Source: an uncultured Opitutia bacterium
GTDB taxonomy: Bacteria; Verrucomicrobiota; Verrucomicrobiia; Opitutales; UBA953
Direction: 5' to 3'
Length of the DNA stretch: 64,000 nucleotides
Assembly: GCA_903855995.1 (NCBI GenBank)
Contig: CAIOAN010000013.1
Span: 78,875-142,874, forward strand
The number at the start of each line of letters is the position of its first letter. The first letter of the stretch is position 1. The position numbers and the translations under genes were made by a program. The notes beneath the pieces are model-generated. The model saw nothing but the letters and a program-made list of their open reading frames with translations, had not been told where the DNA came from and made no database searches. Below, piece after piece: positions 15,670 through 64,000 of the stretch.

Positions 15670-16360
15670 ACGATCGGATCCTGTTGCAGCTGTCTAGTCA
15701 TCATCATCGTCCTGGGCCTCGCCTTCTTTGCCTTCGTCCCCCGCTGAGCCAGGTAGGGATGCGATGACATCGCATCCGCTGTATCCGGTAGGGTCGGGGC
15801 CGCGTCACGACATAGTTGTAGCTCACGGCTGTTCTTAGTTCTTGGTTCGTAGTTTTTGGTTATTTCAGGCCGCTGTATCGTGGTAGGGGTAGCACCGCGT
15901 GCTGCCCTAGCTGTATCAAGGTAGGGACGCGTCGGCGCACGCGTCCGCCTTGATCCACGGTCGCGACACCGTCGCGCCCCTACCACTCCCGCCACCTACC
16001 AACCGAAACGATACATTCACTCAAAGGGAAACCGGAAACCGGGATTAATGCTTCGGGCATGATTCATTCCAGGTGACGGGTGACGGCCACAGTGGTCAGC
16101 CTTTCGGGTGTCAGCCGTTCAGCCTTCAGCCGCCGGGTGCCGGGTGCCAGCTCCCGATGGCCGAACGGCCGATTCCTGAACTCCCGATGCCCGTGCCCGT
16201 CACGCGTCACCTGAATCGCTGCAGCTTTCTGATCAACCGAGCCTCTAAGCCGCGGGCCTCTCGTTTGAATCCCTTGCCAACGTGTCAACTTGCCAGCGTG
16301 CCCCTCGCGCAAGCGCGTGTCCCCTTGCGCTTATAGCGCAGGCCCCCATTCATAAGCGCC
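15670..16360. repeat. mosaic intergenic repeat block (left island border)
   Basis: GTAG-headed hairpins at 15752-15777, 15882-15910, 15920-15946 and 15959-15984. Stuttered words ggtgacgggtgacgg (16072-16086) and gggtgccgggtgcc (16135-16148). Inverted copy of the gaggcc..ggctcggttgatcag module at 16229-16260. Confidence 0.85.
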
Positions 16361-18250: not shown

Positions 18251-18561
18251 ACCCCAACCGGGGACATGCTGGCATGGTGACACGGGGACAAGCGCTTACG
18301 CGAGGGGACATGCTGGCAAGTTGACACGTTGACAAGGGATACAGCGATACAAGCAAGAGGCCCAGAGGCTCGGTTGAACAGAAGAACATCTTCGGGTCAC
18401 AGGTCTCGGCAATCGGGTATCAAGTGCGGGTCTTCAGGTTCGGGTACGGGTGCGGGCCCTGAACCTGTACCTGCACCCGAACACCTGAACCCGGGACCTG
18501 ACGGCCGAGACCCGAGACCCGAAAATGAAGGCCTTACCGCTGATGCGACGTCATCGCCTCC
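18251..18561. repeat. mosaic intergenic repeat block
   Basis: Words gggacatgctggca (x2), ttgacacgttgaca, gaggcccagaggctcggttgaacag (18358-18381), and ggttcgggtacgggtgcggg followed by its near-inverse. Confidence 0.8.
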
Positions 18562-19359: not shown

Positions 19360-19755
19360 ACGACCAGCCGCCGAATCGGCATGGAGGGATGTAAGGAAAG
19401 ATTGAGACATCAGTGGTGGGGAATCAAGCGCGATGAAATCGACAATGCGCCGAAGACTTCGCCAGGAGAATCTCGATCCAAAGGGGTCTTCGTCCTACAT
19501 AATAGCTGAGGCATTACCTCCCCTGTCTCTCTGCATTCCCAACCGCTAACCGCCAACACCTGATACAGGTAGGGCTGGCCATCCTTGGCCGGCCGCGGTC
19601 GAGCAAGGATGCTCGCCCCTACCCAATGACCTAGGGACTTTTCCGGCTTGAGTGTACGCAGACATTCGACACATTGAATTACGCAATGGGGTCTGGCATG
19701 AAAGGTAGCCTCACCATGGGCGGCTTTCCGCAAGGATAGTCCAGACCTCGCCCCT
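19360..19755. repeat. mosaic intergenic repeat block
   Basis: cccaaccgctaaccgccaacacc (19538-19560), a long GGTAGGG...CCCTACC hairpin at 19568-19624, and a 43-nt element at 19630-19672 shared with 58528-58570. Confidence 0.8.
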
Positions 19756-20325: not shown

Positions 20326-20800
20326 ACACTATTGCCTAGATTGGAATCAGCCTGGGCAATCCGAGCGTACTGGTGTCTTCGCATCAGTACCTCCTAAGCA
20401 ATTCCCGCCACCTGCCACCCGGGGCTGCCACCCGCCACCCGAAGCGTTGCATCCCCCTGCCATTGCTTCGCAGCAGTTCACCATGCCAGCATGCCCGCGC
20501 GCTTGCGTGCTGCCTCCCTTGTCAACGCGTCAACGTGCCAGCCTGCCAGCTGATCTGCCTCTCTCTGTTCCACCGAGCCTCTGAGCCTCCGGGCCTCTTA
20601 TGTGTGCCCCATGTCCCCTTGCCCACATGTCCCCTCGCGGCTTCGCCGCGCTCTTGTCAACGTGTCAACTTGCCAGCCTGTCCCCTCGCGCAAGCGCGTA
20701 TGCCCCATGTCCCCTCGCGCAAGCGCTGTCCCCTCGCAACCTTTGGTCGCGTCGAGGTTCAGCGAGCCAATGGTACGGCCTGACCCCGTGTTCGGCCTCC
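20326..20800. repeat. mosaic intergenic repeat block
   Basis: GGTGGC-word array (inverse) at 20404-20446, inverse gaggcc module at 20571-20597, gtcaacgcgtcaacgtgcc and tgtcaacgtgtcaacttgccagc words, and 72-nt repeat copy 1 at 20727-20798. Confidence 0.85.
20727..20798 (+). repeat. direct repeat copy 1 (cassette border)
   Basis: tgtcccctcgcaacctttggtcgcgtcgagg..ttcagcga..ggtacggcctgaccccgtgttcggcc. Repeated at 22923-23003, and its 3' part also at 24457-24484. Confidence 0.8.
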
Positions 20801-23319: not shown

Positions 23320-24471
23320 GGGGTCAGGCCGTTACCGACTCTGATTGATACTAAATCTGCCTGAAAGGCCTGAGTTTGGTATCAGTCATCAGGAGTAACG
23401 GCCTGACCCCTTGGATTAGGGCATAGCCCCTGAAGGGTAACCTGTTTGGATTTACCGACGTATTCATGGCAACAGGAGTCATGCCCCGATCAAAGCGAAC
23501 GCTCTCCAACCAAGGCCTCTATCATGTCTATAACCGAGCGGAGCTCGGCCAGCCCATCTTCGAGTCAGACGGCGCCAAGGCCGTCTTCCTTGAGACCATC
23601 CTCCAGGTGAGCGAGACGCTGGCTTGGGAACTCCATGCCTATGCGATCATGACCAACCATTTCCATTTGGCGTTAACGACGCCCCAGGCGGATATCGAAA
23701 TAGGCATGCATGCCCTCCTTTCGGCCTTCGCGAACAAGCACCGTACCTTCCGAGGGTCGATCGGACACGTCTTCCAATCCCGTTACAGAGCAGACCACTA
23801 CCCTCTCGGCCAGCTTGCCGGAGACAAAGTCGACTATGTCCACTACAACCCAGTCGCGGCAGGAATCGTATCCCTGGATGAACTTCGGCATTACCCATGG
23901 AACAGTTACCGACTGGTCTGGCAGCCCGCACTTCGCGGCCGACTGACGATCGGGCCGATGCTGGGAGCATTGTACGGACTCAAAGACGATCCTGACGGCT
24001 GGCACGCATACGAAGAAAGACTGCGCCTGCGAATGGCATCGGCCGAACGTAGCCTCACCGATGACGAGCTTTTCGGTTTGGCGCGTAAGACCAAAGCCGG
24101 GGCACTGCCCGAAGCGGTCGGTCTACCCGTACGTGCCGGGATGACATCCGACGGCCACCGACAGGAACGTGCCGCCGAACAAGAGCGTATCCTAGGCGAA
24201 GCGCTCGCCGCCGCCGGTATCCTGCCGGAGGATCTACCTGGCCTCGGCAAGAGTGCCGGCGTTAAGGTCGCGGTAGCGCAGGCCATCCAGGCGCGTACCT
24301 TGGCGAGTTCGGCATGGTTGGCCAAGGCACTGCACCTCGGCAGCGCCGCCAACGTGCGCAAACTTCTACGCCAAGCCAAGGGGTCAGGCCGTTACTGAAT
24401 CTGCCTGATACCAAATCCGCACTATATCTATGCGTTTAGTATCAGTACCTGACGAGTAACGGCCTGACCCC
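23320..24471 (+). mobile_element. RAYT/IS200-like unit: Y1 transposase gene bracketed by two copies of a ~91-nt hairpin element
   Basis: Hairpin copies at 23320-23410 and 24380-24471, in the same orientation. Each has perfect 16-nt arms ggggtcaggccgttac / gtaacggcctgacccc. The second copy overlaps the last codons of the gene. Confidence 0.7.
23466..24398 (+). CDS. REP-associated tyrosine transposase (RAYT) / IS200-like Y1 transposase with C-terminal HTH-like tail
   Basis: 310 aa. Motifs LYHVYNRA, HUH motif in AYAIMTNHFHLAL, catalytic Tyr context VFQSRY. Confidence 0.8.
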   Translation: MATGVMPRSKRTLSNQGLYHVYNRAELGQPIFESDGAKAVFLETILQVSETLAWELHAYAIMTNHFHLALTTPQADIEIGMHALLSAFANKHRTFRGSIGHVFQSRYRADHYPLGQLAGDKVDYVHYNPVAAGIVSLDELRHYPWNSYRLVWQPALRGRLTIGPMLGALYGLKDDPDGWHAYEERLRLRMASAERSLTDDELFGLARKTKAGALPEAVGLPVRAGMTSDGHRQERAAEQERILGEALAAAGILPEDLPGLGKSAGVKVAVAQAIQARTLASSAWLAKALHLGSAANVRKLLRQAKGSGRY

Positions 24472-56814: not shown

Positions 56815-57497
56815 AAGTAAACGATAGCGCCCGGCGGATGCGATGTCATCGCATCCCTACCTATTGAAATTTCTGCCACCTGCCACCCGAGGCTGCCACC
56901 AGCCACCTGGAATGAATGCAATCAGTGCATGACGTAGTCCTGTCCCTGCCCTGCGTCCACCGTGCGGCGGCCTGGTTTCGCAGCGGTTCACCATGCCAGC
57001 AGATCCCCGCACGACCTAAGGTCGTGGCAGTGTCTGTTGATTTCTATTACGATTTTGCTCGACAGAATGAGAAGCTTCTGATGTACTGTCTTCCTCTGAG
57101 ATAACCAATGCCGAGCACTTGCCGTCGGGGCACCTAATCGAACCGACGGCCGCTTAAGCGACTCAGAAAGCGTGGTAAAACCACGCGGGGCCACTCTGTT
57201 CCGCCGATCCAAACCGGCATCACAGCTCCCCGGGGGCAGTCATGCCCGCATGGCTCAAGTTGACCAGTTGATCAGAGGCCCGGAGGCCCAGAACGCGAAA
57301 AACGACCTAAAACAACGAACTAAGAACTAAGAACAGCCAGAGCAACTAGGGCAGCACGCGGTGCTGCCCCTACCCTGCACGGCTAAGCCGCGAGCGGTTA
57401 GCGGTAAGCGGTTAGCGGTTGGGAACGTCGCGAGACAAAGACCCAACGAACCAAGAACTAAGAACATTTTAACAAAGAACACCTTTTCTTAACCTTT
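56815..57497. repeat. mosaic intergenic repeat block with a ~190-nt unique core (57040-57230)
   Basis: Hairpin plus CCCTACC at 56836-56861, GGTGGC-word array (inverse) at 56873-56910, a module at 56928-57003 shared with 63329-63405, 57270-57294, 57346-57375, and gcggttagcggtaagcggttagcggtt at 57394-57420. Confidence 0.85.
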
Positions 57498-58223: not shown

Positions 58224-58661
58224 GGCGCTAGAAGCGCCGAAGAACCACTAGTTGACCGGTTGATCAGTTGGCCGGTTGGCCAGAGCAAGACGAACTAGAG
58301 GCACAGAGGCTCAGAGGCTCGGTTGACCAGACCATGCGAGAGTATCGAGTATGGAGTATTGAGTGTAGGGGGAGGCAGCGCTAGGCGTGTTCTTTGTTTT
58401 TTGTTCTTGGTTCATGGTTCGTTGTTTATTGCAGCGGTCTCTAGGTAGGGACGGCGGAGCCGCGAGGTGGAAGCGGTTGGCGGGAGAGACATAGCTGTAT
58501 CGAGGTAGGGACAGTACCACGTGCTGTCCTAGGGACTTTTCCGGCTTGAGTGTAAGCGGATATCGGACACTCTTTAGTCATCGGTCGAGAGGCCGATGAG
58601 AAAGGTCCCTCCTCGGTGACAAGAGCTCTCGGGAGCTCTTCCGTCAGGATAGCTGAGGAGG
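58224..58661. repeat. mosaic intergenic repeat block
   Basis: gttgaccggttgatcagttggccggttggcc, 58298-58330 (gaggc..ggctcggttgaccag), gagtatcgagtatggagtattgagt, gttcttggttcatggttcg, GTAG hairpins at 58444-58467 and 58504-58534, and the 43-nt element at 58528-58570. Confidence 0.85.
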
Positions 58662-59261: not shown

Positions 59262-59626
59262 GACGGGTATTCGAAGAGGCTTCGCCTCGACCTCAAATCG
59301 CCAAAGGCCTCAGAACGGGCATAGAGGGTGACCACTAAGAAAGGTAGGGGCGCGACGGTGTCGCGACCGGGGGTAAGGCTCTTTGAGGTCGCAATATGCG
59401 ACCACAAAAGGGATCCGGACGGACGCGTCGCCGACGTGTCCCTACCCAATGCAGCTAGGGCAGCACGCGGTGCTGCCCCTACCTCGATGCAGCGGATGCA
59501 ATGTCATCGCATCCCTACCCGATGCAATCCCTGCCACCTGCCACCCGAGGCCGCCACCTGCCACCTGAAACGGGTAACTGGCCTACTTGACAGTTGGTCA
59601 AGTGCGGGCAAATCGGCGCCCGAACC
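59262..59626. repeat. mosaic intergenic repeat block: cluster of four GTAG-headed hairpins plus a GGTGGC-word array
   Basis: Hairpins at 59343-59368 (GGTAGGG first), 59421-59447, 59455-59483 and 59494-59520 (each ending CCCTACC). Word array at 59529-59572. Confidence 0.85.
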
Positions 59627-60355: not shown

Positions 60356-60755
60356 CGCGCCGAAGGCGCCGAAGAACCATTAGTTGACCCGTTGACCAGT
60401 TGGCCGGTTGGCCGGAACGGACAACTAGCTGGCCGGTTGACAAGTTGACAGGTGGACAAGGGAGGCAGCGCGGCGGAGCCGCGACAAGATGAGAGGCCCG
60501 GAGGCTCAGAGGCTCGGTTGATCAGAGGAGAGACACCGTTTCGGGTGGCGGGTGGCAGCCCCAGGGCTCGGGTGGCGGGTGGCAGCCTTATCCGTTCCGC
60601 CCTCGATTCAGCCCTCAACGCTGTCATCGACTCAGTGATCCACCTGGTATCAGCCCAACCGCCAACCGCTAACCGCCAACACCACCTTACTATTTATTAG
60701 TGTCATTATACTGAATGAGGTTTGCCACGTTTTCGGGTTTGGGCAGAATGGGGTC
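60356..60755. repeat. mosaic intergenic repeat block
   Basis: gttgacccgttgaccagttggccggttggcc, ggccggttgacaagttgacaggtggacaaggg, 60491-60525 (gagaggcccggaggctcagaggctcggttgatcag), GGTGGC-word array at 60537-60587, cccaaccgccaaccgctaaccgccaacacc at 60655-60684. Confidence 0.85.
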
Positions 60756-61655: not shown

Positions 61656-61666
61656 TCTAAAAGGGG

Positions 61667-61737
61667 TTGGCCCTGCGGGATTCGAACCCGCGACTTGCGG
61701 ATTATGAGCCCGCTCTTACCGGCTGAGCTAAGGGCCT
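61667..61737 (-). tRNA. tRNA-Met(CAU)-like gene, possibly atypical or degenerate
   Basis: The reverse complement reads AGGCCCT TA GCTC AGCCGGTAA GAGC GGG CTCATAA TCC GCAAGTC GCGGG TTCGAAT CCCGC AGGGCCA A. D-arm, T-arm (GGTTCGAATCC) and anticodon loop CTCATAA are perfect. Only 3 nt lie between the D-stem and the anticodon loop, which is ~3 nt short of canonical, and positions 1:72 would be A.A. No encoded CCA. Confidence 0.65.
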
Positions 61738-61928
61738 GGAAATTGGAGGGCTCGAGGGCCAGAGGGCTGGAGGGAGGTAAATGAGAGGCCCGGAGGCTCA
61801 GAGGCTCGGTTGATCAGAAGAAAGACAGCGTTTCGGGTGGCAGGTGGCGGCCTCAGGTGGCGGGTGGCGGGAAACTTCGAGCTAGAGGCCCGGTGGCTCC
61901 GTTGATCCGCGGGCAGGAAACCAGAGAA
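61738..61928. repeat. mosaic intergenic repeat block
   Basis: ggagggctcgagggccagagggctggaggg words, 61783-61817 (gaggcc module), GGTGGC-word array at 61829-61871. Confidence 0.8.
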
Positions 61929-61963
61929 GTAAAAAATTAAGAAGGGGTGAGATTAGCCCCTTC
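61929..61963 (-). terminator. rho-independent terminator (minus strand)
   Basis: Stem gaagggg/ccccttc (61941-61947 / 61957-61963) with a 9-nt loop. On the minus strand it is followed by ttaatttttt. Confidence 0.6.
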
Positions 61964-62806
61964 AACGCTGACCTTTCACCGGATTAGGTCTTCCAAAGAC
62001 GGCAGTGGAAGACTTCCCGATTTATCCACGTCCGCGGTTTGCACCTGCGGCGTAGCCAGCACGACTGCCTTTTTAAAGATGTGGCGATTCATCTATGCAC
62101 GACCCGCTACTCAAACCTGGATTCCCCGTCTGCCTTGCGAGCAGCTAGACGCGCTAGCGTCTCCGTGTTCACCGTGTTTAACGGTCCTCGTCTTGCGGAC
62201 GAGAACGCGGCTGAGTTCACCGAAGTGCCCAGCATTAAGTCGCTTTCGCGGATCGTTGGTAACGACGTTGCGTTTTGATATCCACTAAAGGACAAGGCGC
62301 TACCCCTGCCGACTTGAATAGCAAACCAATGGAGATGCGCGTTACCTGCGGTTCGAATTCCTTTTGAGAACCCGAATGCCACACACCTCCTGTAGGGACC
62401 CGACGGCCCCCCACGGAATCGCAAGTTCGCGTGACCCGGTTACCCGGACCCCGTCCACTCTCGATCTGGCCTGACGCCCTCGGCTTCCGCCTCGAACGTC
62501 CGACCTTGGCTTCGATCTCAATCCTAGAAGTCTAGTTGCGCGCAGTGGTCGTCACTAACGTTACCGCACTTGCTACGAAGTCATCCTCGCAAGGCTTTGC
62601 GCACCTTCTTCAAACCTAGTTCCGCCGCAGCGAAACTCTCAGATCGGCCAGTGCTTAGTCGTCCGGCCATCACAGCCTGGCGCAGTCCTATTGGAGGATA
62701 CTGCTTTCACCACCTCACGGTGGCATATCTTATGGACCCTAAGCGGCCCGTTGTTTGTCGCCCGGCGTTTGAGATGATCGCGTGCAGGGCTATGTTAAAT
62801 GAACAG
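61929..62806 (-). ncRNA. candidate ~0.9-kb structured non-coding RNA (class unknown)
   Basis: No convincing ORF on either strand. The minus strand has a promoter-like TTGACA-17-CATATT at one end and the terminator at the other. Many short perfect stems are capped by GNRA or UUCG loops when read on the minus strand (ccacc-GTGA-ggtgg, cgc-GAAA-gcg, cac-TTCG-gtg). Confidence 0.35.
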
Positions 62807-62884: not shown

Positions 62885-63477
62885 AATAAATTTTAATAGA
62901 TAGTTGGCGGGGGACCAGACCGAGGTAGTGCAAAAGTGGGAGGCAACGTTTCGGGTGGCGGGTGGCAGCCTCGGGAAGCGGGTGGCGGGAGAGACAGCGC
63001 TAGGCGTGTTCTTCGTTCTTGGTTCATTGTTTTTTGCAGCGGTCTAGAGGTAGGGCGTGGCTCTCCGAGCCCGCCGTTGAGCGCTGAGAGAAAGTGCGAG
63101 AGTATCGAGTGTGGAGTATCGAGTATAGGCGGCGAGCTACGCAGCGTTGGTCCGCGAACGGACGGCTGGGGACAGCCGTCCCTACCGGCGAAGGCGGAGC
63201 CTTCGAGGGGACACGTGGGCATGGTGACATGGGGGCAAGGTGCGTAAGCGAGGGCCGCACGCCCCTACCCGTAACAGGTGGAAGCGGTTGGCAGTTAGCA
63301 GTTGGGAATACAAACGAGGCAGCTAGGGCATGACGTAGTCCTGCCCCTACCCTACAGCCACCATGCGGCGGCCGCGGCTTCGCAGCAGATCACCATGCCA
63401 GCAGTTCCCCCACGCGACATGGGGTCAGACACGTTCAGGATTCCGAACGAAGTCAGACCCCGTCGCGCGGCGTGGCG
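62885..63477. repeat. mosaic intergenic repeat block
   Basis: GGTGGC-word array at 62947-62989, gttcttcgttcttggttcattg, GTAG hairpins at 63049-63075, 63160-63186 and 63323-63352, gagtatcgagtgtggagtatcgagtat, and a module at 63329-63405 shared with 56928-57003. Confidence 0.85.
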
Positions 63478-63834: not shown

Positions 63835-64000
63835 GCTGGCATGGTGAACGGCTGCGAAGCAGAGGCAAGGGGCGTAAGTGGGCAAAGTGCAAAGGTGAAC
63901 TCGCGTGGAACGCGAGAGGGGGCAAGTGGGCACGGTGACACGGGGACAAGGGAGGCAAAGCGGCGGAGTCGCGACAAGATGAGAGGCCCGGAGGCTCAGA
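63835..64000. repeat. mosaic intergenic repeat block (cut by window end)
   Basis: ggggacatgctggcatggtga (as at 18262), ggcaagtgggca words, and acaagggaggcaaagcggcggagtcgcgacaagatgagaggcccggaggctcaga (as at 60460-60510). Confidence 0.8.

Follow-up and report, generated by a model that had tools for sequence, protein, structure and literature searches.

Introduction

Bacterial intergenic DNA harbors several described kinds of small repeat, two of which bear directly on the present work. Repetitive extragenic palindromic (REP) sequences with a GTAG tag are highly enriched in Opitutus terrae, and in Anabaena, Thermomicrobium and Halothiobacillus dimers of REPs have been found inside longer palindromes (Di Nocera et al. 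2013, PMC3733652). Intergenic heptamer repeats have been described from Xanthomonas (GGGAATC) and Nostoc (GGGGA(C/T)T) (PMC4692102), from the Beggiatoaceae (TAACTGA; PMC4679880) and, as short tandemly repeated repetitive (STRR) sequences, from the cyanobacteria Calothrix and Nostoc. In this work we examine the intergenic repeats of a 64,000-nt stretch (the window) of contig CAIOAN010000013.1, which belongs to assembly GCA_903855995.1 of an uncultured freshwater Opitutia bacterium of the Verrucomicrobiota, with particular attention to the spacer at 60356-60755, which a first-pass annotation had singled out as being assembled from stuttered short words within a genomic island.

The genome under study (G000) comprises 2.66 Mb in 13 contigs at about 62% GC, and the comparison was extended to 18 species of the genus and to 12 other families of the order. 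The repeats have polar, ordered arms centred on REP doublets and are lineage-specific, and their modules are gained, lost and swapped faster than species diverge. Relative to the published descriptions of REPs and of heptamer repeats with which we compared them, the combination of many words, short imperfect arrays, mirrored layers and REP doublets at the apex is new.

Results and Discussion

Word arrays in the window and in the genome

The words are denoted here by letters, namely A (GTTGRCNN), B (GAGGCYCN), C (GGTGGCN), D (AGCGGTT/GCGGTTN), E (GAGTATN), F (GTTCTTN) and K (GGGGACA/GGTGACA-type); H stands for a GTAG-tagged REP hairpin, and > and < give the orientation of an arm. The first-pass observation of stuttered words is confirmed. 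Within a few bases of their listed positions we recovered GGTGACG in 2.1 copies at 16072-16086 and AGCGGTT in 4 copies at 57393-57420, the inverse CCAACCG arrays at 19539-19557 and 60655-60680, GAGTATN in 3.6-3.9 copies at 58340-58364 and 63100-63126, and GTTCTTN arrays at 15831, 58388 and 63008, with inverted ones at 57311-57334 and 57442-57465. The larger modules were likewise recovered: the C arm at 60544-60584, 61836-61868 and 62954-62986, inverted at 20407-20439, 56875-56907 and 59533-59565, and the B module at 60491-60525 and 61783-61817 (identical to one another), 58296-58330 and 63981-64000, inverted at 20565-20599. The remaining listed words and modules were likewise at or near their given places. 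The one exception, an inverted gaggcc copy claimed at 16229-16260, is absent from the matches of our module scan, the site not having been read separately.

Across the whole genome, Tandem Repeats Finder returned 258 rows of period 7 and 210 of period 8, where a locally shuffled genome yields 84 and 70, and the period-7 rows divide into 137 in about 243 kb of intergenic DNA and 121 in about 2.4 Mb of coding DNA. Arrays of six word classes were then defined by a 6-7-nt core recurring at 7- or 8-nt spacing, with a shuffled genome as the control. The observed (shuffled) counts were 124 (6) for C (GGTGGC), 52 (1) for B (GAGGCYC), 42 (0) for E (GAGTAT), 41 (6) for A (GTTGRC), 37 (4) for D (GCGGTT) and 20 (3) for F (GTTCTT). 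Non-coding DNA, which amounts to about 264 kb or ~10% of the genome, holds 262 of these 316 arrays (83%), so that they are ~44 times denser there than in coding DNA, in agreement with their description as non-coding. The first-pass annotation had allowed for a compositional artefact, in which the words would be as dense inside genes as between them; because single words in genes sit at compositional expectation (observed/expected 0.8-1.2), this is not what is found. Nor are the arrays CRISPRs, as had been correctly judged, since their 7-8-nt units are adjacent and spacerless, number 2-7, and follow no fixed repeat/spacer period.

In several respects the arrays are what would be expected of intergenic heptamer repeats. 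They have a period of 7 (and 8), are almost wholly intergenic, use lineage-specific words and vary in length between relatives, and they show the head-to-tail 7-nt units and the intergenic over-representation of STRR-type repeats. They also lie nearer to the end of the upstream gene, with arms at a median of 50-130 nt past a co-oriented stop codon; the Xanthomonas repeats lie 28 nt from the upstream gene end as against 160 nt from the next start, and at locations more conserved than control spacers (PMC4692102). Unlike the Xanthomonas repeats, those described here occupy orthologous spacers that are hypervariable. They differ further from the known heptamer repeats in that a genome carries at least 8-10 different words rather than one, and in that the arrays are short (median 3.1 units, maximum 7.1), imperfect (only 29% of adjacent heptamers are identical) and set as mirrored arms in a fixed order around REP hairpins.

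Among the long simple-sequence repeats of many bacteria, those with a heptanucleotide unit are the commonest, an excess that has been put down to polymerase slippage as a proposed cause (Mrazek 2007, cited in PMC4679880 and PMC4692102). It could be argued on this basis that the arrays are an artefact of composition or replication slippage, a microsatellite-like stutter arising separately in each spacer of a GC-rich genome, and the differences in unit number between species do resemble slippage. This explanation is already contradicted, however, by the shuffled genomes, with 0-6 arrays per class against the 20-124 observed, by the recurrence of the same limited vocabulary at hundreds of loci in many species, by multi-module blocks of 90-300 nt that different loci have in common at 75-96% identity, and by the arrangement of the arms in ordered, polar and mirrored sets. 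As the arrays are in addition short, and neighbouring units of E and D arrays are never identical, we consider such an origin to be highly improbable.

The modules cluster in hotspots, and the dense region extends well past the window, up to position ~300 kb on contig C13. They had been placed in nearly every spacer between 15.7 and 64 kb of the window, which is accurate for 15.7-20.9 and 56.8-64 kb; between 20.9 and 56.8 kb, however, none of these words occurs. This block, with a GC content of mostly 47-58%, encodes a GmrSD-type endonuclease, NERD and UvrD helicases, a MrfA-type Zn-binding-domain protein and a PD-(D/E)XK nuclease. The words are not the property of an island either, being present on 11 of the 13 contigs and also between conserved core genes. 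Genes adjacent to arrays have a median GC of 0.625 (versus 0.622) and a codon fit slightly above that of other genes, and a link to foreign genes was rejected on account of this normal GC and codon usage and of the array-free, low-GC defence block. As such, the repeats belong to the resident genome and do not border the defence island, whose foreign block is free of them so far. Among viral contigs, the full C-arm pattern matched only a single unrelated one of 34% GC; the GAGTAT pattern matched 43, several with a match spacing of 21 nt. Both outcomes are uninformative with regard to phage carriers.

Two strand asymmetries of this genome were noted separately. On most contigs the sign of the GC skew opposes the main gene direction, the sense strand being C-rich. 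G-rich words are commoner antisense inside genes, yet lie on the sense strand in solo intergenic arms.

Polar and layered palindromes

Each stuttered block consists of 2-5 imperfect tandem copies of a 7- or 8-mer and represents one arm of a long imperfect palindrome. Where two arms of the same class lie inverted within 600 nt of one another, they are convergent rather than divergent in ratios of 34:0 for C, 6:0 for A, 4:0 for D, 10:3 for B and 111:15 for REPs. Beyond 600 nt, or across genes, the two kinds of pair are about equal, and the arms therefore do not enclose genes. Gene-carrying composite elements were rejected for the same lack of polarity in arm pairs more than 600 nt apart, and the proposal that the modules bracket the cargo genes of the window fails as well, since arms face each other only within spacers.

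The arms are also ordered. Certain module strings recur (B>A>H><H<A<B, C>H><H<C, C>H><H<C<C and B>H><H<B), and the genome-wide order of neighbours is B-C 7:0, E-C 8:1, E-H 8:0, A-H 9:1, B-H 7:1, D-H 6:0 and C-H 18:8. The conserved succession of the gaggcc module and the GGTGGC array, pointed out in the first-pass annotation, belongs to this pattern, and in the window forms a single 91-nt unit present in two copies (60489-60579 and 61781-61871) at 90% identity. Read off these data, and as a description only, the layers run from the outside to the inside as A/B (with K), E, C and the REP doublet. A complete element is thus a mirrored structure of outer arms (A/B/K), inner arms (E, C, F, D) and an inverted GTAG-REP doublet at the apex; such elements measure 100-440 nt and fold as single long hairpins at -64 to -195 kcal/mol. 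The genome holds 69 full C arms, and C><C palindromes occur both empty, at 42-100 nt, and filled, with a REP doublet enclosed.

REP hairpins and RAYT genes

GTAG-hairpins number ~339 candidates in the genome, against 93 in shuffles, and 259 of them are intergenic; they fall into several stem families of up to 15 copies. REPs are defined as extragenic, high-copy, GTAG-tagged palindromes of 20-40 bp, a description that fits the H modules, whereas the word arrays themselves contain no GTAG and are not self-complementary, hence fall outside it. The doublets are found between convergent genes in 72 cases and between divergent genes in 21, and units of ~125-150 nt built on them are common to different contigs at 75-86% identity. 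Together with the convergent pairing of REPs given above, this places them among REP doublets forming hairpins (REPINs).

Three short genes encode REP-associated tyrosine transposases (RAYTs), at C10:42913-43485, at C13:144391-144891 (~1.5 kb past the window end) and at C7:324466-324972. Their products, 166-190 aa long, reach 73.7-87 bits against NCBIfam NF047646 (one exceeds the cut-off of 80) and have the H-x-H of the HUH motif and a Tyr as invariant residues. On either side of each gene are REPs in inverted orientation that belong to that gene's own stem type, which suggests three parallel REP/RAYT pairs in one 2.66-Mb genome. REP hairpins of the C7 type occur within the window at 15752, 56836, 59494 and 61269. 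The window itself contains a distant RAYT relative of 310 aa (23466-24398, + strand) that scores 50.4 bits on NF047646, below the cut-off of 80, and is extended by a long C-terminal stretch. The inverted repeats that belong to it (23320-23417 and 24373-24446), of the form GGGGTCAGGCCGTTAC...GATAC, are unrelated to the GTAG REPs, and its flanks contain none of the words discussed here. On the grounds of these unrelated repeats and the low score we rejected this gene as the driver of the elements; the three short RAYTs are better candidates, although for the REP cores only.

The H modules are members of the GTAG-REP/RAYT system. With REPs, REPINs and bacterial interspersed mosaic elements (BIMEs) they have in common a GTAG head followed by a 20-30-nt hairpin that is GC-rich and falls into several stem families, the predominance of inverted doublets, RAYT genes flanked by their own REP type, and an extragenic location, for the most part 3' of genes and in convergent gene pairs. 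REPs cluster in mosaics with other motifs, as is the case for the BIMEs of E. coli, and these motifs recur in a preferred order; however, the non-REP motifs are arms of tandem words in mirrored layers and not short linkers, and no sequence homology to the E. coli BIME motifs was found, nor was any expected. What separates the word arrays from all of these systems is that they lack GTAG, are not hairpins themselves, are absent from RAYT flanks, and either form concentric ordered layers around the REP doublet or stand alone. Such concentric word-arm layers are not part of the published REP descriptions compared here (PMC3733652).

A further comparison is offered by small, non-coding, modular repeats that occur in high copy with inverted arms and build mosaic intergenic regions, as do the present elements. 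Miniature transposable elements with inverted repeats (MITEs) and similar modular repeats of this kind include the intergenic mosaic elements (NIME)/dRS3 and the Correia elements of Neisseria as well as the pneumococcal BOX elements. Unlike MITEs, the elements described here have arms of tandem short words in place of unique sequence, and no parent transposon is known for the word arms, no systematic search for one having been made. No target-site duplication was obvious at the outer ends of the complete elements that we viewed, and a defined terminal inverted repeat with a target-site duplication could not be identified for the word-arm elements.

The spacer at 60356-60755 and its surroundings

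The spacer at 60356-60755 is flanked by a gene for a 253-aa protein of no known family and by an HD-domain gene. Directly after the former is a GC hairpin (60357-60374, + strand; GCGCC-GAA-GGCGC, a 9-mer in two copies). An equivalent hairpin follows the paralog of this gene (58224-58240) and occupies the same place in the orthologous spacers of three other genomes, and the hairpin is likely the 253-aa gene's own 3' hairpin and not a mobile module. On the same strand follow two arrays of the A octamer (60383-60415, 4.1 copies; 60436-60460, 3.1 copies), a B module of three GAGGCYCN octamers with GGTTGATCAG at its end (60488-60528, array 60491-60525; the identical copy is that at 61783-61817) and a C arm in which CGTTTC precedes two pairs of GGTGGC heptamers around an RGCCYCR-type linker (60537-60587, array 60544-60584). 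Elsewhere in the genome C arms pair as C> <C palindromes; this one is a solo left arm without a partner. After ~70 nt of less repetitive DNA comes a D array on the - strand (60655-60684; 3.7 copies of CCAACCG, read as AGCGGTT from the opposite strand), which borders the HD-domain gene's promoter on the upstream side. In all, 72% of the length of the spacer matches at least 3 other loci, and the spacer amounts to solo left arms with one right arm. As it is composed of solo arms and is not a complete palindrome, a single fold of it is no better than those of shuffles (z = -1.4).

The remaining part of the spacer is a promoter-like TGTCATTATACT with the 5' leader of the HD-domain gene (60690-60755, + strand), which is kept in all four orthologous spacers. 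The leader of this HD_4 gene, ~60 nt with GAGGTTTGCCAnGTTTTCGGnTTnnGGCAGnATG, is retained in four species (orthologs L039, L045 and L046) and could be a small regulatory leader.

The same modules are dispersed over other spacers of the window. To the right of the spacer are the second B + C unit (61781-61871, +) and, at 62935-63127 (+), a C arm (62954-62986), an F array (63008-63031) and an E array (63100-63126). To its left, four clustered GTAG-REP hairpins are followed by an inverted C arm (59533-59565) at 59343-59572, and solo arms in the order A > B > E > F lie downstream of the 241-aa paralog (58251-58433, +), followed by a GTAG-REP hairpin at 58505-58529. At 57270-57465 a B module precedes a REP hairpin and an AGCGGTT array that stand between two inverted GTTCTTN copies, an arrangement that looks like an insertion into an F array. 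A GTAG-REP hairpin of the GGATGCGATGTCATCGCATCC type and a C arm, both right-hand halves, make up 56834-56912 (-), at 87% identity to 59492-59570; this REP stem type also flanks the RAYT gene on contig C7. Beyond the array-free block are an inverted C arm (20407-20439), A arrays and a B module (20565-20599) at 20404-20690 (-), K words in a 44-nt unit present twice that grade into A words and then a B module at 18260-18386 (+), and four GTAG-REP hairpins with an F array (15831-15854) among them at 15748-15984.

The vocabulary extends beyond the words first listed. A further word family, GTGCAAAGGTGCAAA, is present in many spacers, as is an extra palindromic element of ~80 nt, CAAAGGGAGACCGGGAACCGGA ... 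TCCGGTCTCCGGTTTCCCTTTGAG, seen for instance at 16022-16043 of the window and at the loci L013, L033 and L034. Amid the repeat modules there are also a GOLLD RNA of full length (RF02032 in Rfam; 179.8 bits, where the gathering score is 150) at 61944-62391 (-) and, adjoining it, a tRNA-Met (CAT) at 61665-61737 (-); an Rfam search of the window returned no family except the GOLLD RNA and one tRNA.

Turnover between relatives

Among the 18 species of the genus, GGTGGCNGGTGGC is present in 16 and GAGTATNGAGTAT in 12, while controls with reversed patterns gave 0-2; in the 12 other families of the order the same words are about never found. The architecture is nonetheless wider than the vocabulary, because a genome of another Opitutales family (G019), sampled at its RAYT regions, has the same layout with other words: (ATTCAAA)4 ... 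(TTTTGAA)4 surround inner hairpins, and the mirrored (ATTCAAA)n arms are AT-rich in a 61%-GC genome (L080/L081). In a third Opitutales family (G030), whose genome has 36-39% GC, there are long perfect heptamer microsatellites, such as (GTAGGTT)19 at L074 13831-13966.

Two sets of orthologous spacers illustrate the extent of the turnover. The first lies at C3:117776-118004, where B>H><H<B stands between conserved convergent genes that are 80-93% identical within the genus. In one species (G006) this spacer is a plain hairpin of 30 nt and in another (G041) a single REP of 59 nt; in 20 other species it measures 126-1128 nt, with outer arms of the B, D or K type and quite different contents. Versions that can be aligned differ by half a C arm, by one D unit, by the replacement of one whole side, or by a block bounded by two CCCTACC tails, and the D arrays have 3 units in some species and 4 in others. 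The longest version (L014, G040 C5; 1128 nt) has ~450 nt of non-repeat sequence amid the modules, which is possibly a small gene or extra open reading frame.

The second set is that of the spacer at 60356-60755; of 60 species sampled, only ~6 turned out to have the two genes that flank it. Its four versions (G000, G005, G049 and L039) measure 400, 865, ~300 and 421 nt and have in common only the stop-proximal hairpin and the promoter/leader. The G049 version contains a complete E>H><H<E palindrome; that of G005 contains two heptamer palindromes of ~190 nt, one with an extra palindrome of ~85 nt exactly at its apex; and L039 has only a right-hand E arm, where G000 has the D array. In two of the orthologous spacers an E (GAGTAT) array occupies the exact site of the G000 D array. 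The contig L039 (CALETE010000025.1) is labelled 'uncultured Alphaproteobacteria'; an ortholog of the 253-aa gene (76% identity), the HD-domain gene and the repeat words described here are all found on it, and it is probably a mis-binned Opitutae contig.

A comparison of orthologous spacers had been recommended in the first-pass annotation, which held cassette borders to be a possible role. Presence and absence do differ strongly between species. Evidence against a border role comes from the lack of an integron integrase, the native character of the genes adjacent to arrays and the array-free defence block. An integron was rejected, since the best TIGR02249 match, Xer-like in character, stays at 80 bits where the cut-off is 265. 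The palindromes are comparable to integron attC arrays in being imperfect and in lying between genes, including small accessory genes, and are unlike them in that there is not one co-oriented element per gene, no GTTRRRY core, and no enclosed genes.

More broadly, the arrays might be devices of recombination that provide portable homology, or act as Chi- or attC-like sites for cassette exchange or for the protection of palindromes after breakage. The X> <X polarity would be the orientation suited to a Chi-type action on a break at the apex, and the D word (AGCGG) and the C word (GGTGG) resemble known Chi cores. Gene content changes at module spacers, as with the extra open reading frame in L014 and the restricted distribution of the genes that flank the spacer at 60356-60755, and some deletions are seemingly bounded by the repeated CCCTACC motifs. 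Within genes, however, the words occur at expected frequency and are not co-oriented but commoner antisense, which is unlike Chi, and a Chi-type hotspot was rejected as the principal explanation because coding DNA shows neither an excess nor a co-orientation of the words. These are also many and different, some of them AT-rich, and the evidence just cited on the integrase, on adjacent genes, on the defence block and on unenclosed genes applies equally here. We consider a recombination device to be improbable.

Origin and possible role of the word arms

Taken together, these observations are in our view probably best accounted for by a BIME/REPIN-like mosaic of selfish palindromic repeats with heptamer/octamer arms, which is genome- and genus-wide and does not serve as the borders of an island. 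The hairpin apex is a typical target of single-strand HUH transposases. It is reasonable to postulate that the mosaics would grow when a hairpin element inserts at the apex of a second one, as apex targeting is known for REP dimers in other phyla (PMC3733652), that their length would change by slippage of whole word units, and that they would decay by deletion between repeated motifs, leaving solo arms such as those of the spacer at 60356-60755. The RAYTs plausibly move the REP cores. The repeats may be tolerated mainly 3' of genes without a locus-specific role, as resident selfish or neutral DNA, and the swaps of word sets in orthologous spacers argue against a locus-specific role.

Several observations weigh against this explanation. 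The word arrays are absent from the flanks of all three RAYT genes, and across the genus the presence of RAYTs is only loosely linked to the abundance of arrays, in genomes that are not independent of one another. No clean single insertion with defined ends or a target duplication was found between close strains (one genome per species being available), so that transposition of the word arms is only inferred. Partner C arms agree at variable positions in 63% of cases as against 67% for random arms, and since partners are no more alike than random arms there is no sign of actively maintained pairing. Solo arms show a strong preference for the G-rich orientation where they follow closely on a co-oriented gene (for solo B arms ++ 14, +- 11, -+ 5 and -- 0, at a median of 84 nt after the stop), a bias that random decay does not predict and that may reflect selection at the RNA level. 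Last, adjacent units with an identical variable base number 0 of 39 in GAGTATN arrays (expected fraction 0.33) and 0 of 15 in GCGGTTN arrays (expected 0.5), as exemplified in the window by 58340-58364 (E) and 57393-57420 (D); D arrays alternate strictly between A and G, which gives them a period of 14 nt. The avoidance of identical neighbours suggests that the arrays are constrained, or that their real period is 14 nt, and that they are not neutral junk. Pure decay explains neither the bias of the solo arms nor the non-identity of neighbouring units, and these two features keep a functional explanation alive, albeit as an unlikely one.

The functional explanation holds that the arrays are generic host cis-elements, whether terminators, mRNA stabilisers, insulators or multimeric ~7-nt sites for a protein such as one with a cold-shock domain/OB-fold, and that they are kept by selection. 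The orientation and position of solo arms downstream of co-oriented genes and the avoidance of identical neighbours in E and D arrays are in its favor, as is the strong conservation of the six constant word positions where flanking genes are only 80-90% identical. The excess of REP doublets between convergent genes is likewise consistent with it, and because the region has no excess of canonical T-tract terminators (5 against an expected 6.9), hairpins without a T-tract might act as terminators. There are also published precedents, in that CspB binds direct heptamer repeats with one protein per heptamer (reviewed in PMC4679880) and a regulatory role has been proposed for the TAACTGA repeats (PMC4679880). 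However, orthologous spacers swap word sets or have none, as in the 30-nt and 59-nt versions at the C3 locus, and no given gene therefore needs a given word; several species of the genus have almost no arrays; and the arms do not covary. The two strands of complete palindromes moreover fold about equally, the top strand being the stronger in 18 of 30 and G-T pairs numbering 256 versus 227, with no sense-strand bias, and this equality gives no support to selection at the RNA level. On balance we regard maintenance as host cis-elements as unlikely.

Somewhat less likely again is that the word arrays constitute a distinct class of element, the arms of which would be both built and read 7-8 nt at a time by a machinery that works on single-stranded DNA or RNA, and which would serve as landing pads for REP doublets or be co-mobilised with them. 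One principle, that of heptamer arrays mirrored around GC hairpins with words particular to each lineage, would then span many phyla. The polarity, the grammar of the layers, the obligatory change between units and the sense bias of solo arms would then be functional signatures, an interpretation to which we give small weight. If true, it would explain the long-noted heptanucleotide excess in bacterial intergenic DNA.

Conclusions

For the defence island of the window the outcome is negative but useful, in that the repeats are resident and the foreign block has so far remained free of them. In practical terms, the elements disrupt the assembly of metagenomes (the fragmented genomes of sister species have many copies at the ends of their contigs), create long spurious open reading frames and can pass for island borders. 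More fundamentally, REP/RAYT repeats and intergenic heptamers, which have been treated as separate phenomena, here form one ordered and polar architecture that covers about one fifth of the non-coding DNA (21% of intergenic DNA matches at least one other locus) and is turned over completely between sister species. Should this coupling be mechanistic, it would account, in a way that can be tested, for how the surplus of 7-nt repeats in the spacers of bacteria arose, and would mark genome changes of very recent date in uncultured freshwater Verrucomicrobiota.

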